Shown here in pieces: positions 20,331 to 51,470 of a stretch of DNA of 64,000 nucleotides. The DNA lies in NCBI RefSeq assembly GCF_963506605.1, contig NC_083292.1, forward strand, positions 1,364,001 to 1,428,000. Direction: 5' to 3'. The notes under the pieces are model-generated. The model was not told where the DNA came from and ran no database searches. It saw only the letters and a program-made list of their open reading frames with translations. The first letter of the stretch is position 1, and each line of letters opens with the position of its first letter. This DNA is from Zootoca vivipara (taxonomy: Eukaryota). The translations under genes were made by a program, and so were the position numbers.

Positions 20331-23300
20331 ATGGCTATTTAGGGGGGGCCTCCCTCCGCTTCCATATGCAATGCGTAGGCCGGGTGCCTCACTCCCTTCT
20401 ACCACCCTCAGTAAATGGAGTACTGTATACCTCTTGTGCAAGCAAGTCAGAGTAAAGTTGAAAGTGTGACGCAGGCACCCCGAAACTTGGGCCTTCTGGC
20501 GGTTCCCTCATTGCAAGAAGTGAGGTTACAGGGAACCAGACAGAAGGCCTTCTCAGTGGTGGCTCCCACCCTGTGGCACACCCTCCCATCAGATAAGCAG
20601 CATCTGAAGGCAGCCCTGTTTAGGGAAGTTCTCAATATTTAATGCTGTATTGTTTCTAACACTCAATTGGGAGCCGCCCAAAGTGGCTGGGGAAACTCAG
20701 CCAGATGGGCGGGGTATAAATAAATTATTATTATTATTATTATTATTATTATTTTGGGACTACAATTCCCATCATCCCTGGTCCTGTTAGCTAGGGATGA
20801 TGGGAGTTGTAGTCCCAAAAACATCCGAAGGGCCAAGTTTGGGGGGTGCCTGTTGTAACGTAAACACAGTTGTTTGGAGAGGGTTCACTGTGCTTTTGCT
20901 CCCAGTGGTGGCTTAGGAGTACTGGCGAGCCCATCTCCCAATGCTCTTTCAACAGGCGGAGCAGAATTTTTCCAAGCAACACTCTTCTCTGGCTAACAAA
21001 GCCTACCGGACGCTCCTGAGCCCCCTGAGCCGTGGGCTGTACCTGGTAAGATACCTGCTGTTTTCCACACACTCGCACGTGGCAGAAGTGCCTCACACCA
21101 TCCATGTGAGAAGAAAAGCCCTGCTGGCTCAGGTCAAAGGTCAATCAAAGCAGAGGGGAGAATGCAGACCCATAGCTGCAGGTGGAGCCTCCAGAGGGAT
21201 TCCATTGAGTCTCCCAGCCTGTGTGTTTGTGTACACAAATGCACATGGGGGGTGCCAAGTGGGGTCTTTGACCCAGGTGAAATAAAGCCTAGTTTGGCCC
21301 CTGGACAAGGACAGGCTGGGAGAGAGACAATAAGGACAGTTTAGAAAAGAGGAGGGTGTTGGTTGACGGTCAGTAAGCTGGTTCATTAAAGAAAGGCTAA
21401 AGAGGGATATGTCCCTACTGCCACCACCTCTCATTACGTATCATCTCCCAAAAACCTTTAGCTGCTTTGCATGTCCACCACATATGATAAAATGTACCTT
21501 CTGTTTCTTGACAGAAGGTGCCTCATTCTGACTTATACGTATTTGCTAACTTAGTGCCAGATAACGTCTATAAATCATTTTCACATCTTTTCTTTCAATG
21601 CATAACATACTGTACTGTAAATTTCAAACCAGTTTTCCAGTTTTTCCCAGAGGCTCAATTCTGTATTATGTCCTACATCCCTTGCCCAATAAATCATGGC
21701 AGATTTTACCAAGTTATCATTTGTTTCCCATTCTAACAAAATCTTACGCATCCTAGAAATTAATTTTCCTCTATTTTCTACTGGTTCCCTTTCAGATTTG
21801 CAACTTTGGTCCATAAATCCACACTGCTTATCTGACTTAAAACACTTCGTTCAGTAGGCGGGTAATGTAACAAGTCCATCACCTGGTTTCTGATGTCTAC
21901 TAGTTTCTTCAATTATACCTCTTGATCTAAAAAGTCTAAAAGGTCTCTGTTTGTTGTCCTCTGTTGACCTATATTCAGTCTTTTCAGTGAGATTGCTTCC
22001 ATAGGCGAGAGCCATAAGGGTGTTTTCCTTTCTAGCAGATTTTAATGTGTCCTCCATACCCTATATAAATTCTTTCTAATTACATGGTTCAAAAAGTTCT
22101 TATAAATTTTAGCTTTACTATACCAAAAGCATGCATGCCAACCAAATTTTATATCGTACCCCTCCAAATCTAACTGAGTATTGTTCAACAGTATCCAAGC
22201 TTTTAACCAACATAAACAAGCAGTGTCATAATATAAAGTAAGTCTGGCGGTGAGAACCTACCTCTTTCTTTAGCATCTATCAGAATTCTATACTTTGTTC
22301 TCAGTTTCTTCCCCTGCTAGACAACTCTAGAAATTTCCCTTTGTCCCTTTGCCATTATTTGAAGCAGCCTGTATTATTAATTACTAGAGCAGTTTGAAAT
22401 AAAAGTAGCACTTAAACTAAAGCATTCATTTTTATGGCTGATTTTCTTCACAGGTTGGTACTTACTGTCAGCTTCCCAGCCTTCTATAAATCACACTCCT
22501 GAGGCTCCTCTATTAGTATGACAGACCAGGGGATCACCACACCCCTCCTGACTGGTTTGGGATTAGTTGTCTCCAGAAGGTCTATCCCCTTCTTGCTGAA
22601 TTGAAACCTAAGTGGAGTGTTCCCTCACAACTCCACTTCTTTCTCAAATTCAGCTTCCCAGTTCTCACTTGTTTGTACAGCATACTCTTATAGGCACTAG
22701 CCACTGTCTTTAAATCTGACACTCAGTTAGAGACTCCTTTCTCTGGCTGTAGATCTTTCCCTCAGGGTGGATGTTACACAAACAGCCAAAAGGTTATCCT
22801 CCTACGGTATCCAGCTGAGCGTCAAGAATATCAACTCTCAATTCCTATTCTTTTTCCCTCCCAAAGTGCCGAATCCACCCTCCTCAGGCTAGCTGTACCT
22901 GCAGCCAACCAGAGTGAGTCTCCAGCCCGGCAGTGGCATTGCATCTCCACACTCCAGTCTACCTCAACTTACCATAGGAAGTGGCTACTGCCTTTTGCAT
23001 CAACAGGTGCTGATCATTTCTCATGGTTCACAGGCTGCCAGCTGCCTTCAGAGTGAAGTGAGGAAGTTCTTAAAAGCCATGATCATTCTTTTCTAGCTGG
23101 AGTTGAATGGAGTGGAGCTGGAGAAAGGAACAGACCCTGAGGCAGACCCTGAGTTTCTCTCAGAAATCATGGAAATTAACGAGAAACTGTCAGATGCAAA
23201 CAATGATGCTAAAATAGAAGAGATGGAAAACTTTATTGCAGGTAAGATGGAGAATTGTGCCTGAAGAGGTCTCTGTGTTGTCTTTCGGTGGGGTGGGGGG

Positions 23301-25358
23301 TGGGAATTTATCAAGGGGTGAAACGACAATAATGAAAACCTCCACAGAACAACATGAAGCAGTATTTAGAATTATAAAGCCATCTCAAAGGTCACCCTGT
23401 TTATGAAAAAACACACACGACTCCTGTCTCTGCTTGAAACCCTAACAAATGAGGTGTTTTTTTAAAAAAATTAGGCTCCCCTATTGGTTTTCATTTGCAT
23501 CTAAACTCTTTCTTCCTTTCCTCAGTTCAAGTGTCCCACTCACAGAAGCTGCTGCTATTACTTCTGGGCAGGCACTTGGGCACAACAGATGCTATATCTG
23601 CCATTCCCCCCCCCCACCAGACATTCACAATCAACTTCAGGAGGAGAAAACCGTTTTTTTTGTTGAAACTGTAAAAACATATTTGTTAAAGAAGACCTCC
23701 ATTTTTTATTGTTTGGGAGCCGGTGAAAGGACTGCCTCCTCTGTATCCCTGTAGCATTTACAAGCAGGCATAATAATGCAGTGAGGAGTAAACAAAGAGA
23801 GGATTCCTTAGCAAGAAAAGAAAGGGGGAAAGTGCTCAGTTTGTTCTATTGAAGAGCTTCTCTGTGTAATGACTGCCAGGAAGTCAACAAACAAAGTGTA
23901 AAAGGGAACTCGCAATTAACAGCTAACAGTAACAGTCTGCCCAGCATGCTTCTCCCAGTGCTTGCCCAGAGTGTTTCTTATAACATAGATAAGAAAGTGC
24001 TGATAAGTTCTCAGTGAATTGGTGAGTTTGAAAGTGGAAAAAGGAACATCACTTCCCTGAGCAGCAATTAAAGTCAATTAGAGTCCTGCGGAGCTCCAAA
24101 GCCTGCTTTCTGAACCGATGCCATCTTTCCGGAAGTCAACAATAAATATAAATAAAATAACACAAGCCAAAACACAATCCATCCTGTAGATTTAAGTATC
24201 TGTCCATAGTCGCCTACTTGTTATCAGAGGCCCAGAATCCACATTCCTTTGTAAGGAAATATGAAATAATGTAAAACCATTTTTGCAGGCAAAAGAAAAT
24301 GTGTGTGTTGGGGGGGGGGGTGACAAGAAATTTTCCCCACCGGATACCACATGACCTTCCTATGCCTCTTGGGGGGGGGGGGAGTTTGTGCCATGCTTGA
24401 CATGGAGTGAGTTCAGTCACAGATGAATCAGAGAGTACTTTCTCATTTCTATAAACATTTTGGAAAAATCCCTTTGTGGGTGTGGCTAGACTTTCAATAA
24501 GACATCTGCTGCTGCCTGACCCAGTACAGCATTCTTCCAGGACAACATGGTTCCTAGTCGGGCATGAGAATTATAATCCAAAACAGGAAGGACAATGGGC
24601 CCAGAAGGCTGCTTTAACATTTGCCCTCCTAAGGACAGTATCTGGTCATGACATCTCACAAACAGCGTTGAAGGCACATGTAGATAATAGCTTTGTCTTA
24701 AATGAAATCAATGCTCTCCTCTTTCCCTTCCAGCTAAACAAGAGGAGCTGATTAAGGATGTGAGCAGAGCCTTTGAACATGGTAGGAGTATTTCCTTCCT
24801 ACTCTCATTGGGGTGTGACCTGCTTGCAAATAACCTCTTGTTCTCCCAGCTGCATGTGGCATGTGCAATCCACATGGCTTACAGGGCTGAGTGCTCATTA
24901 AAAGCCATTCTGGATTGTAAGGACTTGCTTAAAGCCTACCTTTCAAGGAAAGCTGAGCTGTTCAGAAATAGAATGCATTTACTGGTCTTATTAAGGCTCA
25001 GTTCTCTACAGACATTGATCCTAAGGCACACAATAGGTAGTTACCGTAGTCCTGTTAGGAGATGTTAGTGCTAAGTTCTGCAGGATGGCCCAGCAGCAGA
25101 GCAGCCTACTTTCTTGAAGTCACTTGACTGACATATTTCAAAAACCTGCTGCTCTGGGTTCCTGAATGCCAGGAGTATGCTGATTCTGATGGTGTAACCA
25201 TTTCTCAGTCCTGGGAGCAGAGTTCCCACTGGAATACAAACTTGTTTTTTCTTTGTTTAAATGCAGATGATCTTCAGGAAGCCAAAAAACATCTAGCCAA
25301 AATGAAATATTTTGCAAACCTCGAAGAAAAGCTGAAGGAGAAGAAAATCCCTTCTTGA
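19726..25358 (+). CDS. HSCB: HscB/HSC20 mitochondrial Fe-S cluster co-chaperone, 244 aa; exons 19726-19988, 20090-20186, 20956-21045, 23097-23241, 24734-24781, 25267-25358
   Basis: GT-AG exons totalling 735 nt with TGA; Arg-rich presequence, CWSC...FFCPSC tetracysteine motif, J-domain HPD (LHPDFF), C-terminal [12 protein letters not shown]; AATAAA at 25662-25667. Confidence 0.96.
20489..20753 (+). mobile_element. L2 LINE 3' fragment with (TTA)n tail
   Basis: Close match to 14049-14335 (GGCCTTCTGGCGGTTCCCTCA...GGGAGCCGCCCA...GGGGTATAAATAA). Confidence 0.8.
20752..20852. mobile_element. Hairpin hAT MITE, left end missing
   Basis: GGGACTACAATTCCCATCATCCCT...AGGGATGATGGGAGTTGTAGTCCC and right terminus GTGCCTG; same family as 18670, 39557 and 44572. 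Confidence 0.75.
21530..22375 (-). mobile_element. L1-like LINE ORF2 fragment (degraded)
   Basis: Remnant peptides [36 protein letters not shown] and [14 protein letters not shown], typical of squamate L1 ORF2. Confidence 0.7.
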
Positions 25359-26908: not shown

Positions 26909-29900
26909 TTAGAACTCATTGCTAAGATGTTGTCTCTCACACAGTTCTCCCTCTTGTTCCTTGGTTCTGCCAAAGTTGAGCTTGTGGAACTCTCTCTTAA
27001 TTTCCAGGAAGGTTTTGTTCTTTGTCTCAGGAATAACAAAGGAGATGAAAATGACAACCAAGCAGCATTCTAGCAAAAACACAATGAAGCAGTACTGCTT
27101 GAGACCTTTCTGGAAGAAGGAAAAAGAAAGAGCATGTCAAAGGGGGGGGGAGAGATGACACTTTCTGTGCCCCTCCAGGCACTGCTGGATGGCTCAGCCT
27201 TCTCCATGAATTTCTCTCTCAATGGCTACAAGTTACCTCCATCATCCGCTGCTGTAAATCACTAGTGGGGAGAGCGCCATTGTATTTGGGCCCTGCTTGC
27301 AGCCTTCCCCAAAGAGGTTGCATCTGGCTGGACACTGTGAGAACAGGATGCTGTGCTAGAGGGGACTCCTTTGGCCTGATCCAGCATGCCTCAAAAGGAG
27401 ACCCTGGACCATGAACAACACCCCAACCCCCACCTGGAGTGGCTTTATCTGCTCAAGCTGTTCATTTGAATTCTTTCATCCACTATCCCTGGCTAGAAAT
27501 CTCTCCTGCATAGTGAACTGGAATCATTGTGCATCTTAGAAATTCTAGGAATTTTAATTAGATGTATTTATGCATTTTTTCCCTTTTCTTGGGGAGGCAG
27601 GTTCTAACTAGAGTTCATTAAAGGCTTAGAAAACATGATCTAAATGCATTTCTGGGGTGAACAGGCTGTTTTACTGGCAGCTGTTTCTGCACATTCATGT
27701 ACTTCTCAGCTCCCTTTGCAGGGGGTGAGGGTTACTTCTAAAGGTATTAAGAGTTGGAAAAGAATTGGTGAAGATTTGTCCCTCGTGCATGAGGCACCTC
27801 CCTGATTCAAGGGCTGCTCATCATACAGAATTGCCTCCAACTGCACTAAGAGGTGAACCGTCTTTCTCGGGCTTTACTGAAAAGGGGTAGCCATGGGTGC
27901 TGCTGAGAGAGCCCAGCCAGGGTTTGGTGCTGTCTCATTAGGGGCCAGCTTCAGTTCATTTTGCATGGGTGTCAAGTAGTGGGGATGATGACGACAATAG
28001 AGAAGGGTGCTCTCTGGGGTTCCCTCTATTTTATATCAACATTTATGAGCCCCTTTTTTGAAGTGAAAGTGGACAAAAGCCCAGCTAATAAAATAATAAT
28101 AAAAGAACAAATGTCAAATGCAAAAACCAGGGCAATGGGCACAGCAGCGCCATCTCCTGATGAGTCCCCCTGAGTGGTGTCTCTTGCAGGAACAGCCAGG
28201 GGAGGTCGGGTGGCTACAAGCTGCCAGTTTACCTACCACAATGAAGGGGAAGAGCATCCCGATAGTGAAGAAGCTGAGCCAGCTCACCGAGCCTGCAATC
28301 ATGTAAGCAGCTGGGCGCGAAGACTGGGTGAATAATTCTGTGGTCAAAGTGTTCGTCACCCCACCTGCAAACCAATTTTCAAAAAAGACGGTGCTATGCT
28401 GGGGGAGTATTTCAAGAAACAGAAAATGAAACTCTTTCCCTTCCTAGATTAGGAAGCCATTTGCATGTCTTTGAGGGGGAGGCTAGCGGCTAGGTTTTGT
28501 TGGAATCTGGCTACAGAACCATAGGCTAAGAACAAATGAGCAGTTGTGGCAACTCCCTCTTCTTTTAAAGCATGGCAGCTATTGTCATCCTTGGGTCTAC
28601 GGAGGGAAGGCAAGTCAGTACAGAATAGTACCTAGTATCTGATGCCCAGAAAATGGAGAGAATGCACCTAATAACTCCACCTCTTGAGCTAGGATGTTAT
28701 GTTCCCATCCCCTTCATGCCTGCCCTGAGCTTCTGGGATAATTAGCATAGGCAAAGGAAGTCGTGTCTGCCTAATTCAATGGTGCTTCATCTTGATGAAC
28801 AGTTGATGGGAAATGCAAGTGGGAAAGGGTTGTTGTCCTCATGTCCTGCTTGTGGGCTTCCCGGAAGAGGCAGCCAGCTGGCCACCATGGGAACAGGAGG
28901 CTTTGTCCAGCAACCTGGTTCTTCTTGGGGACTTGGGATGCCTCCATGCATTTCCTGCACTTGCCTTCAGCAGGTGGGCTTTTGCAGCACCTTCAAGCAG
29001 CCTACTTAGCTTTTGCAGCATCCTGTTGGTGGCCATCGCTCTGCCTGTTGGTAAAACTGTGGGCTCCAAAAATTCCCAACTTAAACTCCAGCAACTGGTA
29101 GTTGAAGGCGCACGCAGTGTCTGCCCCAAATTTATCACTGGGAAGAGGTACCTGGTCCAAGACCAAAACTCAAGATGAAGGCAAATATGCAGGCCATGCT
29201 CAGGTAGGGCGCCCACGAGTACACCTGGGGAAGAGAGAGCACATGGGAAGGCTTGGCACTGGCTGCAGCCACCATGCCCCTCCCTCATGTAAGCACCCTG
29301 AAGGGGATCAGGGCCAAGCCATGGTGGGAATCCAATAGCAGAGGGGCCAAGTGCAGCACGCTGTCTCTCCTGGCTTCCCTCCTGCTGCGCGGAAGACTCC
29401 TGAGACCTGCTGGCCTTCAGCGACGCCTCTCATGGTGCCTTGCTCATCAAGAGTCAGCACCCATACACACCACATGAGCAGGCATCATGTTGAAAAGCTG
29501 CATTGCAGCTGGCCCACATGCTCCGAACAAGATTACCCAGCCTACCTGGTACGTCAGGGAAAAGGTCAGCACTATGCACCAAAAGGTCATCAGGGAGTAG
29601 CCTCCCAGGATCAGGACCCTTCTTCCCATAGACTCAATGAGCAAGCCCTGCGAAAAGACGAGGAAAGCATTCACTCAGCAGCAAGGAGGAGTCCCTTTCT
29701 TGCCTCAGAAATTCAGATGGGCGCAATTGGAACACTCATCACTTACGCAGGTGAGAGCAGTGAGGCACTCACAAGCCCCAGTGCCAAGGGTCACGTAAGG
29801 AATGTTTTCTCGGGGAATCCCAGCTTCCTCAAATACATAACTTGCATAGAAGTAAATCTGTGAGAAAATACCAAAAACAATGCATGGGAGGCAAATCACC

Positions 29901-32900
29901 AGGCAAAGCAGGCACAGCCCAGGCAATGTGGCCTGTGCAGAGTTAATTTGGGTACGTATCTTACCTGAAAAAGCGGCTAAGAAAAGGAAAAAAAGCTGCT
30001 TAATGTTGCCGCCTTCTAAAAACTGGCATGCATAACTTGCCCACTACGGGGGCCTGGAAGCTCTGCATTCTTCCCTGGGAGGGTCATCCTCCAATCTTCA
30101 CAGGAAATTGAGCTGGCTGTGAAAGGGCTGGTCAAGAGTGCCACCAGCCATGCCCTCACTGCTGAGGTCCAGTGCAAGGGAGAGCACATGGAGGGGGACA
30201 GTGTGTGTGTGTGCGCGCGCATGTTTTGTTTGAGAGTGGGGTAGGGACGGGCCTGGCTGACATTAGCTTTACTCTTCATAGACAACTGGACCGGGCAAAG
30301 TTCAGTTTAAACAGCAGATCAGCCAGCCAGCTTGGGTATGTAAAATGGACATGAAACTGGCAGATAAACAACTCCACTCTGGTTCTAACAGTTGCTTTGG
30401 AACAAAGGATGGGTTGGAGTTTCTCTCATAATGAGTGACATTCAGACACTTCCCTGTCACCCCAGTTCCTAAAAAGGCTTACATTTTACCCCCTTCCCAG
30501 TCCACCTTTGAGCCCAATGCACATTTCCCTGTTTGTGCTAACAATGGGAAGAAATGTCCTCTCACATGTGTGCCCTTTGTTTGGACACATCTTTTTTTTT
30601 TTTAATATAATTTTTATTAGATTTTAACAAGAAATACAAGAAAAAAGAAAAAGGCACAAAAAAGAAAAATACATTAAAAAAAACCGACCAAAAACAAAAA
30701 CAAAAAAAAAAGACAAAAACCGATTCAGACTTCCTCATTTCCCCTTCTTGAGTTCTTATTGTTAAAAATAGTTCTCGCATTTTCCCATTCTAACTTCACA
30801 TTCTTTTTTCTAAATTTCAACTTTTTCATCTTTTTCATTGCTATTATCCATTCTCCTTGTACTTTAACCTCTTTTCTCTTAACATCCTCTCTCCAAAATT
30901 ATTATTATCTAATCCCTAGTCTCTTTCCCTTACCCAAAAATATATAAGATTCACATCCTAATTTATTACCCATTTACTTCCACCCACACAACAAAGTTCC
31001 CACCCCCCCTTCCCTGGAATCGAAGTCTCCAGATGAATCAGCCAGGTTCCTCATACAATCCTTAATACATTCCGAGATCAGACCATATTATTTCAGACAA
31101 TACCAGATAATCCAGAACCCCTCAACCCACCCCTAACCTGTCCCATACCAACTTTTGCCGAACTCTTACCCCCCCCCCTTCTGTAATCCCATCACTTTGT
31201 ATCTTTGCACCTTTTCATCCTCTTTCTGCCCCCCAACTGTTTGTGTCCTCCCCTCTCTCACCGGGGCGCTGATTTTCCCAACCTTTTTTTTGGGGTGCTT
31301 TTTTGCTTTAACCCTCTCCTGTTTCACTTCTCTCACCAGTGAAACAGTGTTTTCTCCTACTTTCCCTCCCTGTTCCACCCCTCCCACCAGTAGAACAGTG
31401 TTCTTTTCAGGAAATAAATCCATTGGTTCAGCATATTGTCCTTCAGTATTATCTTTCTCCTCTTCTATGTTTTTTACATACGTCACTCCAGCACAGTCCT
31501 GGTCTTCCAATCTTTTTTCTTCTCCCTTCTCCTGATCTTCTATTTCTGTTGGATCCTGTGTTTTACAGTCAAAAACAAATGTCTCGACAGCCTCTTCTCT
31601 CAGAAAGTTTACATCAAGCTTGGAGATGCTCACTTGCTTAGTAAGATCCAAAATTGTTGCCAATATTAAGTCCCACTGTGTGACTTCCTGTCCACTCTCT
31701 GGAACCTTCTCTCCTATTCCTTTGTCTAAAACCTCCTCCATCTTTGTACAGACAGGCCGTGGAGTTGAAATTTTAGTCCAATATATATAAAAAGTGAACA
31801 AATAGGCAAAAAGCCAAAAATCCAGTCCCACTTGGTCAGAATCTCTCTCTTTACTCCTTCTTTTCCTCAGAGTCAATACTGAGCAGCCTCAAGGCAAAAC
31901 AAGTCCTCTTTCACTGTTTACAGCTCTCAGTCTCTCACATTCAGCCAGACACATTCCTTTGTATTGTGACGTTAATCAGCAGACTGACTGATCTTTCCTT
32001 TGACCCGACTCCAGGCTCGCAGGGGGCTTTTCTCATGCTGGATCTCAGTCTTTTGCAGAGATAAATACACCGCTTACTTTTTCCTTTACTCTGCCTCAGG
32101 AAAAAGCTCTTTTTACAGCATTTCTGGGTTTTCTAGCTTGCTGCGATCTTTAGTTACTCAATCGGGGGGGGGGGAGATGACTTCCCTTTTTAATCTCCGC
32201 CTCCCACTGCCAAATTCTTGTTTCAAATTGATTGGTTTCAACTTACTTCGTCCAGATCGTAACTTTTTCAGGAAGAATCCACCGCCTGCAGGTTGGAGGC
32301 TCAGAGCTTCGCTTCTTGGAGGTAACGATGGTATGCCTAAAATGGCTCCCGCGACTGCCACTCGGCTGGCTCTCAGGGGCTCTTGTGGGCTTCCTGGGCA
32401 GCTGAGGAGTCGCTTCTGGAGCTCCGCCAGGCAAAATTTGCCCCCTGGACGCTCAACCAGGGGTATTTACGGGGATCCGCGTGCCCCCGCGGATTTCCCC
32501 CCCCTCCGCGATGCCAGAAACCTCGCAGCGCGAGGTTTCTGCGCCTCCATTTTCCAGCGCGGCAGACCGGAAGTTGTTTGGACACATCTACACTGAGCCA
32601 GTTCCGCACCACCTTCAGTCTCTCAGCTCCCAGCCAAGGGATCCTGGGAACTGTAGTTCTATCAGAGAACAGAGCACCTAACCGTACTCAGCATTTCCTC
32701 AAGGTGACAGCTCCCAGAATCTCTTGGAGAAGTCCCAGCAGCTAAGCCGTTTCCAAGTTGGTTGAGGTTTGTTTGGAGTGTAAATGCATGTCCTTGCATG
32801 GCAGAGGGGAAACTAGGCAGCAGGCAAAAGAGTGATGCCTAATGAAGAGGGGAATGGCTCAGTCCTGGTACTCACCGCATTGATCCCACTGAGCTGCTGG

Positions 32901-35900
32901 CCCATTGGCAAGAGGATGATGGTGATGAGCTGCCATCGGATGCTGCGGTCAGTGAAGAGTTGCCAGGGTTTCTTGGCTGCCTCACCACCAAGTGCAAAGC
33001 GTTCCTTCTGAATGTCCTCCATTTCTGCCTGGTAGTTCAAAGGGCCATGGAACCGTTTCATTGCTGGGAAGGATGGAGGAGAGCTTTTAGGGCCCAAGTG
33101 GGCCTTTGAGTGCAGGAGATATTCGTGAGGCCACCAAGAGCTGTTGCAGCTCAAGAGAGAGACGGCAAGGGGCCTTGCAGTTTGGACCATAGAAGCCACC
33201 TTCCCAACCACCCAATCGGAGAGGAATCGGGCTGGCTACTTCACAGGTGCATCTGGACTGGGCACAATCTAGCTTGCCCAGGGCCCCACACTGAGTCCTT
33301 GGACACACAACTCTTTGGAGCAGAAGGAAACAGCCAGCAGTGGCTTGGGTGTGAAACACAGAGCAGTCAAATACAACATTCCTAGGGTGGGCATAAAAAG
33401 GGGGTGTCTGGACCAGCCAGTTGGAACTTCCTGTTTTCTCCTGGGCTGAGACAAACTTCCTCTACATGTGACCAGAGGTGGGCGTGACCTCACCTGTGCA
33501 GGTAACAAAATAACACCGGGGAGGCAGCCATCTCTCTCTCTGACTCTATTCCTCAAAGAAGCAACATCTCCTTAGCCTGAGATGACAAGAGATGACAAAG
33601 GAACTACAGTATCTCCTTATGGGATAGATTCCACGTGTATATATTTTATAACCTAGGTCTGCCTTCTGGGATCCTTCTGTGAACAGAATGTGTGTAAACT
33701 ATTTTATATAATTTTATACAAGACTGTGTCGTGTCTATTCTTTTAAGAGGGAATAAAGGGGAATTACCAGGAAACTTATTTTAGAGGGTTATGCAAGCCT
33801 GGCAAAGACGTTATCCGCTGTGCAATTTTTTAAAAAAATGGGAATGTTACTCTGCTAAATTATAGAACTTGTTAAACAATATATCCTCTCCTGCCTCCCT
33901 GAACATTCCCACATGGTTAAGAGCCTCTCCGGGGTGGTAAGTGATCTTTTGAGGAGCAGGGAGTCTGAGGCTGAGAGCAAGGGGGGGTGGGGGAAGCAAG
34001 GAGCAGTGCTCCTTCTGCAGCTGCCCTTGCTATGGATGCTGAAGGGCAGACTTCACCTTTGATGCTTTTCATCTCATCCCCTTGGTCAATGAAGAGAAAC
34101 CGGGGACTTTCTGGAAACCAGGGTAGGGTCAAGAGTTGGATGAAGGCTGGGAAGCAGCTGCTTGAGAGCAGTAAATGCCAGTAGGCCTCTCCGCCAAGTA
34201 ACTCCCTGCAGGAAGAACAGACAATGCTGAGACAAGGGGCTGCCAGCTCCATTCTGATCCTGGGACAACAAGCCAGGCCAAAGCTGAGCAGCCCTTTCTG
34301 GGTGATGGGGCCCCAGCACTCACCTTAAGCCAATCACCTGTCCTGTTAGAATCCCCCCTGTCAGGAAGATGGAGCTGCCCATGACCATCGCGCCTCGCAG
34401 ATGCTTAGGGGCAGCCTCGCCTATGTAGAGAGGCTGCACACAGAGTCCAATGCCTGGAAATGGAAGAGGAAATCAGTGGCCCCCCTTCTTCATTGCAGGA
34501 TCCACACACAGGGGACCCTCGGGGCCTGCAGGTGGCCTTTCTACTCATCCCTCCTTTCATTCTAGGTTGCTAGTGGTGTCACAGGGTGTTCAGCCTCAAC
34601 AACACCACCAGAAACATAAAGCAAAGGTTCACAAAATCCTTTGCAGTAGGATGTGCCCACACAGAGTAAGACCACTAGCTGATCATTGAGGAAGTCACAG
34701 GTGCACAAACATATCCCACATGTGAAGTGAAGACACGAGTCAGAGGGTTGATGCATGTGAGCTGTGCATGTAGCAAGCTGAAGCAAGCTTGGCAGAGCCT
34801 CCTTTTATTAGCACAGATGCACACGTGGAGGAACAGTCTGACCTTTAGGGCTTTTACATCATGAGCTGACACATATGTTTCCTCTGGTATCTGCAAGACT
34901 TGCTCCACCATGCCATGTTCCTACCAAGTGGGAAGACTACTGAGAAAGCCAAAGGTGAGAGTGAGGGCACGGCATGCAGACAGCTACTGCGGCTTTCCTG
35001 GGGGCGGAGGGGTGCCTCACACCCGAAGGTCAGGCTGTGGCCTGCCGGGGGGAAGTGTGCCTCACCTCCAGTGATCAAACCGCAGCCTACCTGCAGGCGG
35101 AGTTGTGCCTCACACCGGCCGTCGAATCCCTACAAGCTACAACATGTGCCCTTAAAGCCCCTGAAATCCCACCAGGTGAATTTTCCCAGGTGCAAAGTTG
35201 AGTTACCTGTGTTTATACCAATCAGAAATCTCCCAACAATCAGCAATTCATACAATCCGGCTGGAAAACTAACTCCCATGAGGATGGCGGCCAGGATGGC
35301 AATAAAGTTGTTCATTAAAAGAGTTCCTTTCCTGCAAAGGAGGAGGGTAACAGGATTGCACTCTTAAGGGACAGATAATTATTTGTCACAGACCCTGACA
35401 GGCTCCTGGACAAAGTTGGCACAGCGTTCAAGGTCCTCCAAGAGAAACAGGCAAATTTAAACATCTTACCTTTCCCCTTTTTTAAGACAACGTCTTATAA
35501 CTTTTTTTCCTCAAAAAAAACACAGTGTGGCTTACTTTCGGTGGGGTGTCTTATTTCTTTTATTACCGGTACGGTTTTTACAGCTCAGGTCAGAGCACTG
35601 CTGGGCTCTATTGAGTGCTTGGTGCTGCAGCAGCCACCGGTTCCAGGTGGCGGGGCGGCAGGTGTCTTTGGCCGGGTCAGGCAGAGGCCGCTGGCTCAGG
35701 CGCTCCGCCCAGCACTGCAGGGCGCTCCAAGCTCCTTGGCCGGGCCAGGCAAGGAAGAAGCAGTGAGCCCAGCGGTGGCGGCAAGCACGGAAGCGGCAGG
35801 GACAGCGGGGGACGAGAAGGCGGAGCGCGGGGATGCAGCCAGCAAGGCGGGAGCGCGATCAGCTGTTAAGCGGAGCTCTTGGAGCGCCACTTCACAGCTG

Positions 35901-38900
35901 ATCACGCTCCTGCAGTGCTGGCCGCATCGAGTGACTCTGTGAGTGGAGGTGCCTGTAGGGGTTGGTTTCTGCGGCACGGAAGCATGGCTTATTTCCGGGG
36001 TATGTCTTATATTTCTCAAATGCTTAAAAATCCTGCCATGGCTTACTTTATGACTACGTATTAAAAAGGGGAAACAGGGTAGATAAGGTGGGTGGAATCC
36101 AAGGGCCTCCTTCCCACTAAAGCACACAATGGAAAGTCACCCCTCTGGAGACTCCCCACCCCGCCCCCAACACTCCTATTTTTGCTGATAGGGTTGTGCT
36201 TGGCTCTGAGTGCTGGAAGATGAGCTGAAAGGCCCACTAAGTCAATGTCCTGGTTATTCTTGGGCAAGTCTCACTCTTTCAGCCCAGCCTCACAGGGTTG
36301 TTAAAGGTCCAGTCACAGACGACTCTGGGGTTGTAACGCTCATATTGCTTTATTGGCCGAGGGAGCTGGCGTACAGCTTCCGGGACATGTGGCCAACATG
36401 ACTAAGCTGCTTCTGACGAAACCAGAGCAGCACACGGAAACACCATTTACCTTCCCGCCGGAGTGGTACCTATTTATCTACTTGCACTTTGACATGCTTC
36501 CAAACTGCTAGGTTGGCAGGAGCAGAGACCAAGCAACGGCAGCTCATCCTGTTGCGGGGATTCGAACTGCCAACCTTCTGATCGGCAAGCCCTAGGCTCT
36601 GTGGTTTAGACCACAGTGCCACCCATGTCTCTTCACAGGGTTGTTATGCAAGTGAAATTAAGTTGGGGGTACGTATGTGGCCTCACTTCTTTCGGATTAA
36701 GCAATGCAAAAAAAGAAAGAAAGCAATACAACCATTTTTCTTCTTATGATAAGAAGCATCCTGCAGAAGAGTGAATCTTAAGCCAGAAGTGTGTGCTCTT
36801 CCATCTTGCTCACCTGCCCAGGTGGATGGCCAGGCTGCCTCCAAGGTGAGCCCCAAAGAGCCCTCCCAGGGAGAAAATGGAAGCAATGGTGGACCAGAGG
36901 AGTGTCAGCATGCTGGAACTGAGCTCTGCCTGGTAACGCCTCTGCCAGGTGTCGTTGAGGAACTTGTGGATGTGCTGGAAGGACAAAGTGGAGAGAGCAT
37001 TCGCCGCTGCTGCCGCCACCACTGCTGCAACAGCCATCTTCTCTTCTCCAGGTGCAGCAAGCCCTTCTGCCTCTTTGCCTTGAGGAGCAAAGGCAGGCCA
37101 AAGCCGAGGAGCCCCCTCTGCATCAACCGCATGGTGGCTGGTTGACCTGATCCCAGGCAGGAATTGATTGTGCCAGGAAAGTGGGGCCTCATGGGTGAGC
37201 AGCCTCCCCTTTGCACAGCCATCTCCTTGCAGCCTGACATGGAGTTATCCAGGGCTTGGCCCATCAAACCCAGAGCCTCCCACCCTGACCGGAAGCATCT
37301 CTTTCCTTGCCCAGCTACACAACAGCCTTTTTGTAGCAAATGCCACAGGAGAGAGAGAGCCAGCCGGGGCCTGGTGAATGCAGAGTTTACTTGAGGGGTT
37401 GCCCTCTCGGCAATTCAGTCTATGGACCTTGAACTCTTACAAGGACCATAGGATGTTCACCTCACATTTGTCAGGAACTGGTACCTGGGCTTTGAGGCTC
37501 CTTGCGTCTTCATATGAGGCAAACACCCAGCTAAAAAATTGCTCCAGCAAACCTGGCAAGAGTAGTTGTGTTCACTTGTTTTTAAAATTTGCTTATTTTA
37601 TTTGTATATTGTTGATAATTGCTTGTATTGTTTGCATGTATACTGCTTAGGCTTTTTAAAAGTAGTTTATAAATTCTTCTAAATAAATTGGCAGGTGCTC
37701 AGGGGTTTTGTGGTTCTTGCCCCCCTCCCACCCTCTAACTCAGGGGTCAGCAAACTTTTTCAGCAGGGGGCCGGTCCACTGTCCCTCAGACCTTGTGGAG
37801 GACCGGACTATATTTTGAAAAAATATATGAACGAATTCCTATGCCCCACAAATAACCCAGAGATGCATTTTAAATAAAAGGACACATTCTACTCATGTAA
37901 AAACATGCTGATTCGTGGACCATCCGTGGGCCGGATTTAGAAGGCGATTGGGCCGCATCCAGCCCCCGGGCCTTAGTTTGGGGACCTCTGCTCTAGCTTA
38001 TGGACTTGGGGCAGGCTGTGGGGCATCTTGTTAGTTTGAAAATGAGATTTACTGTGTGAGGTAGAAACCTTGCAGGGGGTGTACCCTAATAGCAAGAAGC
38101 AGGAAGTAGCAGCAGGAGTCAGGGCATGGACATGCTTACATTTGTTGGTGAACAACTGATCAATGACTTGGCAGAGCTGCTAGGACTTGCTAGGGCAATC
38201 ACACCCAGTGCTCCATTCACTGAGCCACTGCCAGTCTTCAAGGCTGTGGGCACCTTGCCTCTGTCCCTTCTCTATGCAGAGAGGTGGCTCTGTTTCCATG
38301 GCAACAGCTGCCTAACCCTCTTATTGAAGGACAATAAGTCATACAGTGGTACCTCAGGTTACAAACGCTTCAGGTTACAGACTCCACTAACACAGAAATA
38401 GTACCTCAGGTTAAGAACTTTGCTTCAGGATGAGAACAGAAATCGTGCTCCGGCGGCACGGCGGCAACAGGAGGCCCCATTAGCTAAAGTGGTGCTTCAG
38501 GTTAAGAACAGTTTCAAGTTAAGAACGGACCTCCGGAATGAATTAAATTCTTAACCAGAGGTACCACTGTATTCCCATTGCCAGGCCACCATGAAAGCAG
38601 AGAGGCTGGTGAGAGGGAAAGTGGGGCTTGGCTTTCCCATATTCCCAGGGTCAGCAGGGGGCCCCTGGTGCCAATTCCTGCCAATGTCCCCCAGCTATGC
38701 TCCCCACCGCTACACACATGCACTGGTTGTCCTCTAAGAGATGCTGCATTGTCCCACTTAAGAGTCTTGGAGGGGGGAATCCATCTTTCTGAATCCTTGG
38801 TCATGGTGAGACCAAGGGCAGGCCACATTTTCTTCAACAGACCAAAAATTACCGGCATCCTCTGAACTCTCGCCAACAGTGCACCCCTAGGCTCTCAATC

Positions 38901-41900
38901 CATGAGACATCAGCATGTTTGTCTCACTCTTTTTTCCAGTCTTGTGCTTTTATCTCTCCATGGTTACTTTGTTTTAATTATTTTTAAAATGCATGAAATG
39001 TTTTGGTAAATCAAGATTGCACTCTTTAATCAGAAAGGGAATCAGCTGATGAGGGGTGAGGGCAGCCGCCTGCGTCCCTCCAGACTTGCTCAGCTTTACA
39101 ATCTATAGCTTTACTGTCGATTTATGACAGCACAATGGAGCCATCACCAGCTCTTGGCCAGTCTCCCCATCCTCAGGCTCAGGGGCAATTGGGGTGAGGC
39201 AGGACTAGAAGGAGAATATTCTTTTGGTTAGCCTTTGTGGGCCTCCTGCCCAATGATGGCAGCCACAGCAGCCCTGAGGGAAGGGAGAGGGCAAAGCCTC
39301 CCCGTATGGGGAGGGCAAGGAGCCCCGTTCCTTGACACAAATCTGGGGTGGAGTGTTCACTTAGTTTGGACTGCATGAGTCATGGGGGAATGATCCCCAT
39401 GAAGCAGATATTTGAACGATGGTGCGTACTGCCGACAACCTGACAGCTTTTTATTTATCCTCATGGCTTGATAAGAAATGTTTCTGGGGAAGAAGTTTAG
39501 GAAAGCAACAGGCAACTTTGCTCCAAGCATTTGATAGGTCAGATAATAGTGTAGACCAGGCATCCCCAAACTGCGGCCCTCCAGATGTTTTGGACTACAA
39601 TTCCCATCTTCCCCGACCACTGGTCCTGTTAGCTAGGGATCATGGGAGTTGTAGGCCAAAACATCTGGAGGGACGCAGTTTGGGGATGTCTGGTGTAGAG
39701 TAACCCTCCCATCTCCAGCAACAGAAAAGAGATAAAAACAGCATCTCACCTGAGTGGGTGCATTGATGATGGAAACGTTGTACCCATATTGAAAGGTGCC
39801 TCCGATTCCTGCCGCACAAACAGCCAAAAGGAGCGTCCAAGTCGGGAGCTAGAGAAAGAAGCCAGAGACCCTCGTGGTCTGGAGAGTCATGCTACTCGGA
39901 ACAGACTGGAGGCTTCTGTGTAGAAACACTAAGCCTTCCCCCCACAACCTCTGATCCCAAGAGCCTTCCTTCAGAGAATGGGATCTCTCACTTTTGCAGA
40001 TTATAACTGATATCTAAGCAGCCTTTGCCAAGCTCTGCAGATGTTATGGATTAGCACAGTGTTTCTCAACCACTGTTCCGCGGCACACTAGTGTGCCGCG
40101 AGATGTTGCCTGGTGTGCCGTGGGAGAATTACTTTATATATAGTCAATATAGGCACAGAGTTAATTTTTTTAACATTTTCTAATGGTGGTGTGCCTTGTG
40201 ATTTTTTTCATGAAACAAGTGTGCCTTTGCCCAAAAAAGGTTGAGAAACACTGGATTAGCAGTCCTATCAGCCCCAGCCAACCAACATGGCTGTATGATG
40301 CTGAGGCTGATGACAGTGGCAGTCCAAAACATCTGGAGGGCACCAGGTTGGGGAAGGCTTCCCTCAGGCCCAGGGGGCAGGCATTTTATGCCATCCTCCT
40401 CTCCAGCAGAGAGGCTGCAGCAGAGTCATAGCTGCCAAGTTTTCCCTTTTCTCGCAAGGAAGCCTATTCAGCATAAGGGAAAATCCCTTTTAAAAAGGGA
40501 TAACTTGGCAGCTATGAGCAGAGTTGGGCAGGTTGGACTGAGGCTGGACTACCTGTAACACCCACAGTTCTGAACTAAGGGAGAAGCAGATTTGTACTCC
40601 TGCTGGAGTCAGCATAATAAATGTGTACAGATGGTTTATAAACTGAATCAAGCAGTTAATTAAGAAGCATAGCAATGAATTAACAACAAACACAAGTGAC
40701 CACCATTGATTGCATGGCACAGTTTCTGCTCATTGTGCTGCCTCTGCTTCCAGGTGCCCCATCAGCTGTGTTCTTCTCTTCCTCTTGCATTTTAAAGCAG
40801 AGGCAGGATAGCTCAGTCTGTAGGGTATGAGACTCTTAATCTCAGGTTGTGGGTTTCAGTCCCCCATTGGCATGGGCATAGCTAATGGGGGGCAGGGGCA
40901 GCTAACCCCCCCCCCCCGATCAAGTAAAACAATGGAAATAACTAACTGACCAATCATGATGGTTCTGTCCCCCTCTAACAAAAATCCTGGCTACTCCCAT
41001 GCCCATTGGACAAAACATTCCTGCATTGCAGGGGGTTGGGCTAGATGATCCTCATGGTCCCTTCCAACTCTACAATTATATTATTCTAGGACTAAGCTTC
41101 TCCATTCCCCATCTGCCTTGGCTCTTTCCGAGCACTACAAAGGTGCCAGCCTTCCTTTTCCTTAATTCCCAGGGTCAGCACCAACAAACTTCAAATGTTT
41201 GCAGGTTGCTAGAATCCTGGCAAAGCACACAGGACCTGACTAGCTACGGTACTACCTGATCCAACAAGACAATCATTGTGACCTTTAGCAAGAGTTGCAG
41301 AATCAGGATTTCTGAGCACAGCTCACTCTTGCCCATCAGAACTCTCCTCTTTGTGAGTTTGCACTCTTGCTTTGTGAATTTTAAAAAGTGGCTGACAACA
41401 ATTTCTAGCAAAAAAAGGTAAATGAGGAGAGCAGGCAAGTTTGTGGGTGGCTCATGAGGTTTGAGCCTGCTGTAGAACAGTGTTTGCTGAGTGGCCCAAA
41501 TGTTCAAAGCAAGCTTTGCCAGGTGAAACCTCATTTGACCCACAGAACTGCTGCCCTGTTGATGGAGGAATCCTGCTCCACCAGGCAGCAGAGGCAGGAG
41601 CTGTTTGGCATGTGCCCCCACTTGGAAACCTGCCTGTTGGCCTCCCGCCTTGGCCCTCAAGTAGGAATAGCCTCTTTGCCAGGTAATCCCTTGGCATGTG
41701 ACCCAGGCTGATCAAGTCTGGCTTGAGCACAAAGGAATGTGCACACACACAAAAGTACCACCCCAACACCAAAGTGACTCACTCTGGACTTTCTGAATCG
41801 TGAGGAAATAAAAGCCCCAAACTGGAAAACAAGCCCTTTCCCACTGCTCACTATTGTTCTCTGGGGCTGCTGTGTTTCTCGACTGGAACTTTGCCTTTAT

Positions 41901-43802
41901 CCTTGGGGAGAGGGCAAGGTGGAGAGGAATTACTTCCTTGGGACAGAACCGCCAGCACTTCATTGTTCCCCTTTCATCCTGGACTGGGCAGTGGGTGGGC
42001 CTTGGCTTCACCTCAGACAAGGAGATGACTAAGCACTCGAGCAGGGCAGCCACACAAGAGAACCATCCCCATCACTGCTGAGAGCCTCATGACTTCCTGC
42101 TTGTGATGCTGATGTGAATGGATTATCTGAGGAACTAATCACTTGACAGGATGAGGCGCTCTCATTCATTATGCTCTTAGCTTTTTGCATTCCTGCTTTA
42201 TTTCCTCCACTCCTGAAATGCCACACAATTAAACTGACCCACCTTGAGATAAGCAAATGGGGGCTGGGGGCTGGGAGAGGTATCTGTCCAGGGACATGAT
42301 GGATGCTCCATTGCAGTTGGTTAGACTCTTCACCCAAAACAGAGTTCAGTGCGGTCATTTGGGCCATCAGTCTCTTGCCAACAGCAGCAAGTATCAGAGC
42401 TCAACACATGCCTTCACCAAAGCCAAAATGACGATGAAGCAGTAGCTGCAGCCATACACCCCCTGGAAGCCATTCCAGACTCTGACCCCACCCCCATTGA
42501 TTACTTACATAATTAAACTCTGCTTTTATTTCTCTATTATGCACCCTGAGTGCTGCTATCCTGAAAGAGAGGGGACAATTCTCTACACCAGTCACCAATA
42601 TACAAATATTTGCTCAATCACTGAGAGTGGTGTCAAAATCATTGAAGTGCAGTGGGTGGAAAATTGAAATTTAACAAAACAAATCCATCAACTGCCCTGT
42701 ACAAAAGATGCTGTTGACTTTATTTATTTATTTATTTATCTATCAAATTTCTTGCCAGCCTTCATCAACAGGTAGCTGCACAGTTTGCAACAATATTATA
42801 ATCACTGGAAATCATTTACAATCAGAAGAATAGGGTGGGTCCTAAAATATATATTTCACAGGTATCAAAGGCCAGGATGAAGTGGTGCCTCTTCAGCATA
42901 GGATGGGAGTTGAATGACAAAGGTCCCAGGTGCCCCTTCTCTGTGGGGAAGGGGGGATGTCACAGCTTAGGAGCTGACACACCAATGCCACCAGAGCTAT
43001 CAAGAGCACCCCCTCTATCAAACTGAACACCCAAGATATTTGGGGGGTTTTAAGAAGGTAGCTTAATGTTACCTGCAAGCCTCTCTAGAAGAATTTGTAT
43101 CCTAAAAGGCTGGGCAGATAGATAGGCAGGCAGATACTTCTCAAATTCATGCTGCAATTTCCATTATCAGTTGCCTCATGGAAGTATTCACACACCCCAC
43201 CATCTGTTTGTTAGAAGGAATCTCCTGTAAGATCAGGGTATGCAAATCTCACCCTCACTTCAGTTGCCTCTATAACGCACACACATCCCCTCCTGCATTA
43301 TGAGACTCAATACTTCTGCCTTTCCCCTGAAACCCAAGCCCACAGCCTCCTTGTCGCCTGTGACTGTGCAAGCTTGCATACCTTGCTAGGCTGTCCAGCA
43401 CCTTTAAGCAGCGGCTGGTGCTCCATTCTCCACACCAGGCGGGTGGCCTTCTCACCAAGGTGGCTAAGCTACAGCAGAAAGAGGCTGAGAGGTGCCACCG
43501 TTGGGGTGGCAAAGTGCTGTTGCAGCAGACCCCAGAGCCTTCATGCCAAGATACTCCAGACTCAGTTATCCATGGAGTTTTATGGGCTGGGATTCATCAC
43601 AGCCTGCCCTGAAAAGCATTTAAGGGGTCACCCCACAAAGAACTTTTTCACCGACTGTGAACAGTCAATTCGTTTTGGTTGCTCAGGGAAACATGCACAT
43701 TAGTGACCAGTTTGCTATGGGCCCCCATTTGTCCGTGAAGAGAGAGAGAGAGAAGCAGACAGAGAGCTGGGAGGAGACATTTACCTTGTGATTTTCTCTC
43801 AT
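26909..43802 (-). CDS. SLC2A11B: Class II facilitative GLUT-family transporter, SLC2A11-like (probably SLC2A11B), 494 aa; exons 43785-43802, 39750-39848, 36814-36974, 35207-35331, 34324-34453, 34057-34205, 32876-33063, 29747-29857, 29546-29647, 29152-29224, 28237-28364, 26909-27109
   Basis: GT-AG exons totalling 1485 nt with TAA. Sugar-porter motifs [57 protein letters not shown]. Family is secure; the B-paralog name and the 18-nt exon 1 (MRENHK|GTAAAT) are inferred. AATAAA (minus) at 26681-26686. Confidence 0.88.
30593..32573 (-). mobile_element. ~2-kb RT-less L1-like retroposon (copy A) in SLC2A11B intron 7
   Basis: 16-bp TSD TTGTTTGGACACATCT at 30577-30592 and 32574-32589; CpG-rich 5' end starting CTTCCGGTCT; ORF 31166-31876; AATAAA (30613-30618) plus poly(A) tail; no RT or endonuclease motifs. 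Confidence 0.85.
35480..36060. mobile_element. Degraded pogo/Tc1-like non-autonomous element with a GC/CpG-rich interior
   Basis: Subterminal TAAGAC..GTCTTAT and GGCTTATTTCCGGGGTATGTCTTAT motifs resemble the MITE at 54553; termini eroded. Confidence 0.5.
36304..36632 (-). mobile_element. Sauria SINE
   Basis: Colinear with 6658-7016; TSD TCACAGGGTTGTTA at 36290-36303 and 36633-36646. Confidence 0.88.
37741..37990. mobile_element. hAT-Charlie non-autonomous element (OC1/OposCharlie-like), 250 bp
   Basis: Termini CAGGGGTCAGCAAACT / AGTTTGGGGACCTCTG; TSD CTCTAACT / CTCTAGCT; internal CACTGTCCCTCAGACC...CCGGACTATA...AATTCCTATGC. Confidence 0.8.
38344..38569. mobile_element. Tigger-like MITE
   Basis: TIRs CAGTGGTACCTCAGGTTA / TAACCAGAGGTACCACTG, TA TSD. 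Confidence 0.85.
39557..39692. mobile_element. Hairpin hAT MITE, 136 bp
   Basis: TIRs CAGGCATCCCCAAACTGCG / CGCAGTTTGGGGATGTCTG; TSD GTGTAGAC / GTGTAGAG. Confidence 0.88.
40057..40253. mobile_element. hAT MITE nested in an older hairpin MITE (about 40018-40360)
   Basis: Perfect TIRs CAGTGTTTCTCAACC / GGTTGAGAAACACTG and perfect TSD GATTAGCA. Confidence 0.9.
40801..41095 (+). mobile_element. tRNA-derived SINE with CR1-like 3' tail, interrupted by a hAT MITE
   Basis: tRNA-like head GATAGCTCAGTC...GACTCTTAATCTCAGG; tail GGGGGTTGGGCTAGATGATCCTC...CCCTTCCAACTCTAC. Confidence 0.7.
40871..41001. mobile_element. hAT-like MITE inside the SINE
   Basis: Termini CATGGGCATAGC / GCTACTCCCATG; 8-bp TSD CCCATTGG at 40863-40870 and 41002-41009. 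Confidence 0.8.
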
Positions 43803-50129: not shown

Positions 50130-51470
50130 GCTGAGTGCAGGATGGGGACCAACGGTGGTCAGAGTAGCACCCGGAAGGAGCAGGACGTGTCCCTCTCCAG
50201 AGGGATTCCCCTCCCCGGACACGGAGCTCCACGCCCGGAGAGCCAGCGTGGGGAGGGCAGGCTTCCAGGCCACGTGCTCAGAGGCCAGCCAGGCCCCGCT
50301 GGACGCCAGAGGTTTTTGCCGGGCATGTTGCCCCCGCCCCCCGCCAGTCCCTTCTCGGGTGACGGCTGCGAGATGCTCTGGCTGGGGTCGGTCGGGGCAG
50401 AGCTCCGCAGGCTCGGCGGGGCAGCCTCAACCACTCCAGGCCAGGGCTACTTCTGGAAGGCCCCGGGGGACATATGAGATGATACAGGGCGGAAGGCGCT
50501 TCCCCGGAATGGCGGCGCCCGCGGCTCCCTGGACGGAACTACAGCTCCCGGCATGCCCAGTGTGCCGCAGCGCGTGCGGACTGCAATTCCCGGCGTCCTC
50601 CGGGAGGGGGAGCGGAAGTGGAAAAGCGGAAGAAGCAGCGCGGGCCGGCCCCCTCGAGAGGACAAGCAGGCCCCGTAGACGCGGAGCCCCCGCGTGAATC
50701 CGCCCCTGCGCTTCCCTGCGTGACCGAGGCGCCGGCGCCGGCGCCGGGCGATGGCGGCCCTGCAGGGGGCCTTTCCAGGGGGAGGAGCCGCTCCCCCGCC
50801 GGCCGAGTTCCTGCCCGGCCCGCTCGCACGACCCTTCCGGCCCGCGGGGAGCGCCATGGACGGACTGGGGGACAGCGGCGGACCGGAGGGGGTTCCCCGC
50901 CGGCTCGGCCTCTGCGCGCCGCCGCCCAGGATCCGCGCACGGTACTGGGGGTGCGGGTGGGCCGGGACGGGACTCCCGGCGCCCTCGTGGCTCCCCCCTG
51001 AGCGCAGCCTTCTCTCCCTCCCGCAGGCTGCCCGCGGTGGGCCGCAGCAGCAAGAAGCGCCGCGTGGACGGAGAGCCCGACGGGTAAGCGCCGGCGGGGA
51101 AGGGGGGAAGGGGCCGCAGGGGGAGCGGCGGGCCGCAGCGGGGAGCGGCCCCCGGCAGCCTTGGCCGCTGCGGAGCCCCCGTATAAGCTGCGCCATTCCT
51201 TCGCCAGCTGCCCGGAGGCCAAGAAGAGGCTGGCGGAGGCGGTGCCTGCCTTGGAGGAGTGGCTCCTTGTCGCGGGCCAGCCGTCCGGCCCGGGACTCTC
51301 TCCACAGGGCCAGAGCCACCTGCCTGGCCCGCTGGACATTCCCTGGGAAGAGATGGAGCAGTCGGCGGGGGAGCTGCAGTGCGAGGCGGCCCGCAGGAAG
51401 CTACAGGAGATCGAGGACAGGTAGGGGCCGGGACATTTCAGCTCAGCAGTGGGGGCTCAGAGGCATGGGG
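50130..51470. promoter_or_regulatory. CpG island / CCDC117 promoter
   Basis: CpG-rich; two ZNF143/THAP11-type motifs (ACTACAGCTCCCGGCATGCC 50538-50557; GGACTGCAATTCCCGGC from 50578) and ETS-type GCGGAAG sites near 50612-50632 upstream of ATG 50751. Confidence 0.8.

Follow-up and report, generated by a model that had tools for sequence, protein, structure and literature searches.

An intact SLC2A11B gene in Zootoca vivipara encodes two N-terminal forms, the longer of which carries a conserved dileucine motif of the melanosomal type

SLC2A11B, a class II member of the GLUT family, is reported to be needed for the pteridine colour of xanthophores in pigeon, fish and frog, and the site and cargo of its action are debated, with current texts, in the passages available, assuming uptake at the cell surface. 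GLUT8 (SLC2A8) owes its intracellular location to an N-terminal EXXXLL motif before transmembrane helix 1 (TM1), which is sufficient for late endosomal/lysosomal location via AP-1 and AP-2, and an LL/AA change sends the protein to the cell surface (Diril et al., PMC2730553). The melanosomal proteins OCA2, tyrosinase (TYR; EKQPLL) and TYRP1 have the restricted consensus ExxPLL in common; delivery to the melanosome depends on AP-3 binding, and the proline at −1 and the glutamate at −4 are features tied to that delivery (Sitaram et al., PMC3418312). Pterinosomes are considered lysosome-related organelles (PMC12146710). Our study concerned a minus-strand GLUT gene within a 64 000-nucleotide stretch of Zootoca vivipara (contig NC_083292.1, positions 1,364,001 to 1,428,000; hereafter the window), which was found to be an intact SLC2A11B ortholog with two N-terminal forms, the longer beginning with an ExxPLL motif. 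We propose, at a probability of roughly one-half, that this motif sorts the long form to the pterinosome, where it would carry a pterin or purine-like precursor across the granule membrane.

From an ATG at 43802 to a stop at 26909, 12 coding exons, joined by their coordinates, gave a 1485-nucleotide frame of 494 amino acids with a single, terminal stop and GT-AG borders at all 11 introns, and the translation agreed at all 494 residues with the RefSeq protein of the same species, XP_034953908.2 (P0016). This bears out the claim of a preliminary description of the window that a complete 494-amino-acid class II GLUT lies here, and Pfam matches on both flanks place it, as described, between HSCB and CCDC117, two genes that we take to adjoin each other directly in the human genome. 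The protein showed GR[KR] loops, PESPR, PETK and GPG motifs, and loop 1 contains a sequon for N-glycosylation. Pfam Sugar_tr was matched by six of the nine exon-bearing frames scanned and by a 503-amino-acid relative, P0001 (PF00083, E=6e-100), and the structure model predicted a 12-helix major facilitator superfamily fold (predicted local distance difference test score, pLDDT, 88.6; template-modelling score 0.90 to GLUT7 and GLUT3). Class II closeness was seen in Protein Data Bank (PDB) sequence scores of 417–445 bits on the GLUT9/5/7 side versus 285–323 for GLUT1–4. The genome contains further class II GLUT genes: a search with exon 7 returned 8 matches from 23 candidates, and these included SLC2A11(A) at C17:14.91-14.92 Mb, a cluster of 11-like genes in tandem near C17:14.98-15.01 Mb and, on C5, a gene of the ‘9-like’ type.

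The identity of the window gene as the lizard SLC2A11B ortholog, which the preliminary description had inferred and which we regard as practically certain, rests on two trees, a topology test and published synteny. The trees were quick IQ-TREE inferences of 50 and 26 rows, hand-chosen from ~490 fetched proteins and drawn up without medaka slc2a11b and lizard SLC2A9. In the 50-row tree the window protein fell into a 20-row clade together with proteins designated 11b from fish and the coelacanth (Shimodaira–Hasegawa-like approximate likelihood ratio test 100), separate from SLC2A11(A), 11-like, 9, 9-like (which we take to be SLC2A15), 5 and 7, and in the 26-row tree this clade also took in the pigeon record P0458 and Xenopus tropicalis ‘slc2a7’. 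A constraint that grouped the window protein with five 11A rows was rejected by the approximately unbiased (AU) test (p-AU 4.8e-7). The pigeon record was identical to the window protein at 308 of 415 positions and to the lizard’s own SLC2A11(A) at 209 of 402. Pigeon, turtles and crocodilians share the block CCDC117-SLC2A11B-CHEK2-TTC28 (Maclary et al., PMC8662629), and the window agrees with this published synteny in CCDC117, HSCB and CHEK2-type forkhead-associated (FHA)/kinase exons. The lizard gene resembles SLC2A11B of pigeon, medaka and zebrafish, and the Xenopus ‘slc2a7’, in clade, neighbours, a tryptophan in exon 3 and its two N-terminal forms. That tryptophan, Trp49 (Trp58 in the long form; 36947-36945), marks the position hit by the nonsense allele of pigeon; 187 of 197 SLC2A11B records have W there and 10 have a gap. 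The Xenopus protein (NP_001120033.1; P0137), which clusters with SLC2A11B and not with mammalian SLC2A7, begins with a DYQPLL motif.

The gene is already known, since squamate orthologs and synteny are published: it is annotated in RefSeq, its pigment role is in print, and orthologs of 41 taxa including Squamata were analysed by Si et al. 2021 (PMC8432899). The need for the gene in medaka pigmentation, the pigeon W49X pearl eye and the mammalian loss, all stated in the preliminary description, agree with the published passages, and the loss is stated in three papers, including PMC8432899 and PMC8662629. Mammal names were absent from the best 120 of 2196 protein matches, no mammalian genome being searched.

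Relatives of the window protein occur in two N-terminal forms, and the window encodes both through alternative first exons, 1a and 1b (Table 1); the preliminary description gave the 494-amino-acid form correctly and overlooked the motif-bearing 503-amino-acid isoform of exon 1b. Run X1 contained all 11 junctions of the 503-amino-acid form, including the joint 39848/43382, and in runs X2, X4 and X5 contig pieces terminated at 43382, the loose end in X2 being the start of exon 2. These four runs belong to one study, were kept as contigs and have no recorded tissue, and their RNA status is a guess, none of the 18 runs containing the stretch being recorded as RNA. For the contigs of this one study, the long form is spliced in Zootoca vivipara. 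The 5′ untranslated region of the exon 1b transcript extends to at least 43713, and no upstream in-frame ATG extending exon 1b was found. Exon 1a lacked coverage in all eight runs examined (bins 43603-44200 and 43718-44038); contigs drop rare forms, so this lack does not show the 494-amino-acid form to be silent, and the annotations of crocodilians, turtles and birds include short N-termini like that of exon 1a. Run X3 covered 3′ pieces only, run X6 covered neither first exon, and the raw-read runs X20 and X21, of which ~6 in 100 reads were examined, gave one junction read altogether. The pigeon papers, in the passages available, number different forms, namely Trp49 plus 448 residues (497 amino acids) versus a 504-amino-acid protein cut to 57.

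The motif of the long form, EHQPLL, differs from the EKQPLL of tyrosinase at one free position and is the sole [DE]xxxL[LI] match in the 503-amino-acid protein. Its tail is predicted to be unstructured (pLDDT <50 for residues 1–10), with helix 1 beginning at residue 19. The motif is placed similarly to that of GLUT8, although GLUT8 is a class III protein with a constitutive motif, whereas the lizard protein belongs to class II and carries it on an optional exon. TYR, TYRP1 and OCA2, for their part, have folds unrelated to SLC2A11B, and their organelle is the melanosome rather than the pterinosome. The motif was surveyed in 410 stored proteins of 400–660 amino acids, of which 324 were classed, counting tails that start with Met. 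It was found in 105 of 158 SLC2A11B records (87 of 133 distinct tails) versus 0 of 106 paralog tails, with strict ExxPLL in 74 of the 133; after shuffling, the motif occurred on average in 3.3 and at most in 10 of 133 tails. These are counts of database records, related and bird-rich, and so not independent events; their point is conservation across bony vertebrates, for the motif is present in teleosts, sturgeon, amphibians, turtles, crocodilians, squamates and birds including pigeon, whose record P0458 begins with ExxPLL as the lizard long form does. Fifty tails lack even the relaxed motif, and the majority of these resemble the short form or doubtful models. Among 90 distinct motif tails, E was kept in 96 %, Q in 87 %, P in 90 % and the two leucines in 100 and 93 %, and the positions after them vary. 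At the level of sequence, then, the survey shows a putative sorting signal that is conserved and specific with respect to the paralogs.

The Anolis orthologs (P0105, P0144) have diverged (69 % identity, long branch of 0.59) and read ExxALL instead of ExxPLL. In OCA2, a Pro-to-Ala change at the ExxPLL proline kept AP-3 binding and lost AP-1 binding (PMC3418312). The motif reads [DE]YxxL in 43 of the 133 distinct SLC2A11B tails, overlapping a possible tyrosine-based sorting signal, and the lizard has His there. No published description of an SLC2A11B dileucine motif was found in a search that did not cover the medaka and frog primary papers, so a prior description may exist. The published accounts of SLC2A11B do not, in the passages available, discuss the sorting motif or the exon switch, and the lizard gene is known here from sequence.

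The substrate pocket was numbered by hand from the PDB sequence alignment, with urate contacts taken from PMC11169512 and PMC11848319. The best PDB sequence match was GLUT9 (SLC2A9; E=3e-132, 46 % identity in the fold search), a urate uniporter that also has N-terminal isoforms and whose group showed the dileucine in 0 of 4 tails. SLC2A11B retains the equivalents of GLUT9 Tyr71, Asn333, Glu364 and Phe426, and has Phe for N462 and Asn for F435. It lacks Y327 and W336, which set the urate preference of GLUT9 (PMC11169512, PMC11848319), having Gln (Q283) and Tyr (Y292) instead, and a urate transporter pocket of the GLUT9 type was rejected on these replacements. Compared to GLUT1, SLC2A11B has Glu320 for N317 and Gly382 for E380, Glu320 being of the GLUT9 type and Asn in GLUT1–4. 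Near-fixed positions in 197 SLC2A11B records were S162 (190), Q283 (196), E320 (189), N390 (185) and F417 (192), of which S162, N390 and F417 are family-specific pocket residues and presumably correspond to GLUT1 Q161, W388 and N415. As aligned, the pocket matches neither the sugar GLUTs nor GLUT9, and it would fit a conserved substrate of SLC2A11B’s own, which it does not name.

Taken in order, the mechanism we propose starts from an intact ortholog with two N-termini, the long one of which is spliced in Zootoca vivipara in the contigs of one study. The motif would then bind AP-1/AP-3 and retain the 503-amino-acid form in endo-lysosomal membranes, while the 494-amino-acid form would by default end up at the cell surface, a step that we consider quite probable by analogy with tyrosinase, OCA2 and GLUT8. 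In xanthophores the target organelle would be the pterinosome, as a lysosome-related pigment granule, and the cargo a pterin or precursor that crosses by facilitated diffusion and is then trapped in the lumen; this last step is suggested by the loss-of-function phenotypes and by a pocket unlike those of GLUT1, GLUT5 and GLUT9, and the cargo is probably neither glucose nor urate. In pearl irides the cells persist without pigment and gene expression is little changed, from which the authors placed the action near pigment production or accumulation (Andrade et al., PMC7935293), and zebrafish slc2a11b knockouts lose the larval pteridine yellow and regain a carotenoid yellow as adults (bioRxiv 10.64898/2026.10.26.761803). 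Both phenotypes are consistent with granule loading.

Several points weigh against this proposal. The evidence for exon 1b comes from four runs of one study of guessed RNA status, the motif counts from non-independent, bird-rich records, and the pocket numbering from manual mapping. The sugar-type QQ pair of TM7 is kept (Q283 in 196 of 197), so hexose transport may still take place. The [DE]xxxL[LI] motif is also an AP-2 ligand and possible endocytosis signal, and that of GLUT8 works through AP-1/AP-2, not AP-3 (PMC2730553). The short, motif-free form is the one numbered by Si et al., with a transcript validated from iris RNA (PMC8432899), so the pigment function may belong to a form at the surface. 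In the same study CSF1R and GCH1 were down in the pearl iris, and expression of pigeon SLC2A11B was high in brain, muscle and retina as well. Published readings, in the passages available, favour uptake into the cell (PMC7935293; bioRxiv 10.64898/2026.10.26.761803) or a role in differentiation.

The strongest alternative, to which we nevertheless give limited credence, is a plasma-membrane importer of pterin, purine or a guanosine triphosphate (GTP) precursor, the dileucine serving endocytosis or recycling only, or the short form doing the work. Pterin uptake was proposed by analogy with GLUT9 (Andrade et al., PMC7935293), whose N-terminal isoforms go to different plasma-membrane faces according to the cited urate-transporter literature; a 2026 preprint states cytosol import and GTP transport, with no data in the passages available (bioRxiv 10.64898/2026.10.26.761803), and annotations from sauropsids and fish alike include a form without the motif. 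However, xanthophores express GCH and synthesise their own pterins, according to a 2026 reptile single-cell paper. E, P and LL, the first two at the positions tied to melanosome delivery (PMC3418312), moreover persist from fish to birds, whereas the flanking positions vary. It is also the motif exon that the spliced contigs carry.

SLC45A2 acts on melanosomes as an organelle-maintenance carrier, and SLC2A11B could in principle serve pterinosomes or lysosomes likewise, through sugar or osmolyte exit or lumen pH, with pigment loss an indirect effect. We regard this as improbable: the sorting signal is that of GLUT8 (PMC2730553), the sugar-type Q283/Q284/N289 are retained and the pigeon expression in brain, muscle and retina (PMC8432899) would suit it, but several glucose-binding positions differ (G382, E320), and the reported phenotypes are, in the passages available, confined to pteridine colour. 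Slightly more doubtful again is a hexose transporter that acts upstream of CSF1R and GCH1 and fuels the differentiation of xanthophores, as the fall of both in the pearl iris (PMC8432899) and the failure of xanthophore development in medaka mutants, as cited in the pigeon literature, would have it; the pearl iris retains its cells, unpigmented (PMC7935293), adult zebrafish knockouts have yellow xanthophores (bioRxiv 10.64898/2026.10.26.761803) and the pocket diverges from GLUT1 and GLUT5. That the gene is instead a different class II paralog, SLC2A11(A) in particular, as the RefSeq name ‘member 11’ and the source names of relatives (‘member 11’ or ‘11-like’) hint, is hardly credible and was rejected, as both trees and the AU test speak against it, no clade with mammalian SLC2A11 was formed, and a separate SLC2A11(A) gene, 255 of 480 residues identical, lies at the C17 position given above. 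This sister paralog (GLUT11; 53 % identity) has the same exon layout as SLC2A11B and is kept in mammals (Bos record), but it has Met at Q283 and Asp at N289 in TM7 and the dileucine in 0 of 12 tails.

The features of the locus are collected in Table 1. Beyond HSCB to the left, Pfam matched FHA and kinase exons (CHEK2), and beyond CCDC117 to the right a bZIP domain (XBP1-like); TTC28 in the window was read by eye only, Pfam giving no match. AATAAA signals stand 3′ of exon 12 at 26686, 26478 and 25746. Low-depth contigs of run X1 cross introns 11 and 10 (27081-27623, 28338-29179), possibly as retained introns or pre-mRNA. A 2037-letter contig of the same run covers 26000-27110 with 927 letters more past its left end; if colinear, it reaches the last exon of HSCB, and the convergent 3′ ends of HSCB and SLC2A11B may overlap (25070-27110).

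Table 1. Positions of SLC2A11B features, neighbouring genes and the intron-7 repeat in the window
Feature	Position	Strand	Evidence and remarks
Exon 1a, alternative first coding exon (6 codons)	43785..43802	-	ATG and GT donor; matches P0016; gives 494-amino-acid form without dileucine
Exon 1b, alternative first coding exon (15 codons)	43382..43426	-	GT donor; 15/15 residues identical to P0001; gives 503-amino-acid form
EHQPLL, acidic dileucine motif of ExxPLL type, residues 2-7 of 503-amino-acid form	43406..43423	-	
Exon 2 (TM1)	39750..39848	-	Gene model, X1 junctions
Exon 3 (Trp49, loop-1 N-glycosylation sequon)	36814..36974	-	Gene model
Exon 4	35207..35331	-	Gene model, Pfam frames, X1 junctions
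Exon 5 (TM5; pocket positions Ser162, Thr166)	34324..34453	-	Gene model, X1
Exon 6 (PESPR motif)	34057..34205	-	Gene model, Pfam frames, X1
Exon 7 (TM7, QQLSG; Gln283, Gln284, Asn289)	32876..33063	-	Gene model, Pfam frames, X1
Exon 8 (Tyr292, Glu320)	29747..29857	-	Gene model, X1
Exon 9 (GRR motif)	29546..29647	-	Gene model, X1
Exon 10 (TM10)	29152..29224	-	Gene model, X1
Exon 11 (Asn390, Ser413, Phe417)	28237..28364	-	Gene model, Pfam frames, X1
Exon 12, coding part (PETK motif, stop)	26909..27109	-	Gene model, Pfam frames, X1
Young 1981-bp interspersed-repeat insertion, intron 7, same sense as gene	30593..32573	-	A-tail, 16-bp target-site duplication
HSCB, left neighbour, approximate coding span	19729..25358	+	Pfam HscB_4_cys; HSCB_C at 25128-25355
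CCDC117, right neighbour, approximate coding span	50751..52950	+	Pfam CCDC117, E=8e-15, 52678-52947

The preliminary description had also put the gene forward as a candidate for yellow/orange pterin colour variation, an idea that our study leaves weak for this lizard, as its yellow-orange belly is reported to be carotenoid-based (Fitze et al.) and the zebrafish knockouts regain a carotenoid yellow. The coding sequence is intact in Zootoca vivipara, and no variant was tied to colour in this analysis. The gene slc2a11 was not found among the best matches of a search of the squamate-pigment literature, and ‘SLC2A’ does not occur in the main text, as available, of the 2026 reptile single-cell paper. 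One cis candidate for colour variation is the repeat insertion in intron 7, which is flanked by its target-site duplication at 30577-30592 and 32574-32589 and has at least 36 other near-full-length copies at 94–98 % among 40 candidates scored of 1209. With an AATAAA-like 3′ end and a 240-codon open frame (31166-31888, minus strand) to which Pfam gave no match, it is likely a non-autonomous element mobilised by long interspersed nuclear elements; run X1 splices normally across intron 7. SLC2A11(A) and the tandem 11-like cluster (C17:14.90-15.01 Mb) lie ~13.5 Mb from SLC2A11B. In a Phrynocephalus colour study, five slc2a11 paralogs arranged in tandem are equated with the pigment gene of medaka (PMC9260186); these may represent the C17-type 11-like cluster rather than SLC2A11B.

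In summary, SLC2A11B is a known gene, yet a conserved sorting signal of the melanosomal type on an optional exon offers a new handle on its mechanism. Tentatively, and with the odds somewhat against so broad a statement, SLC2A11B may be the vertebrate loader of pterins into pterinosomes, using the ExxPLL code of tyrosinase and OCA2, with an ancient choice of first exon toggling between a granule and a surface form. If true, this would name the transporter that loads pterins into vertebrate pigment granules and would link the organelles of xanthophores to the AP-3/BLOC-1 route, and studies of colour genetics should then examine exon 1b and the right paralog, not the SLC2A11 tandem cluster.

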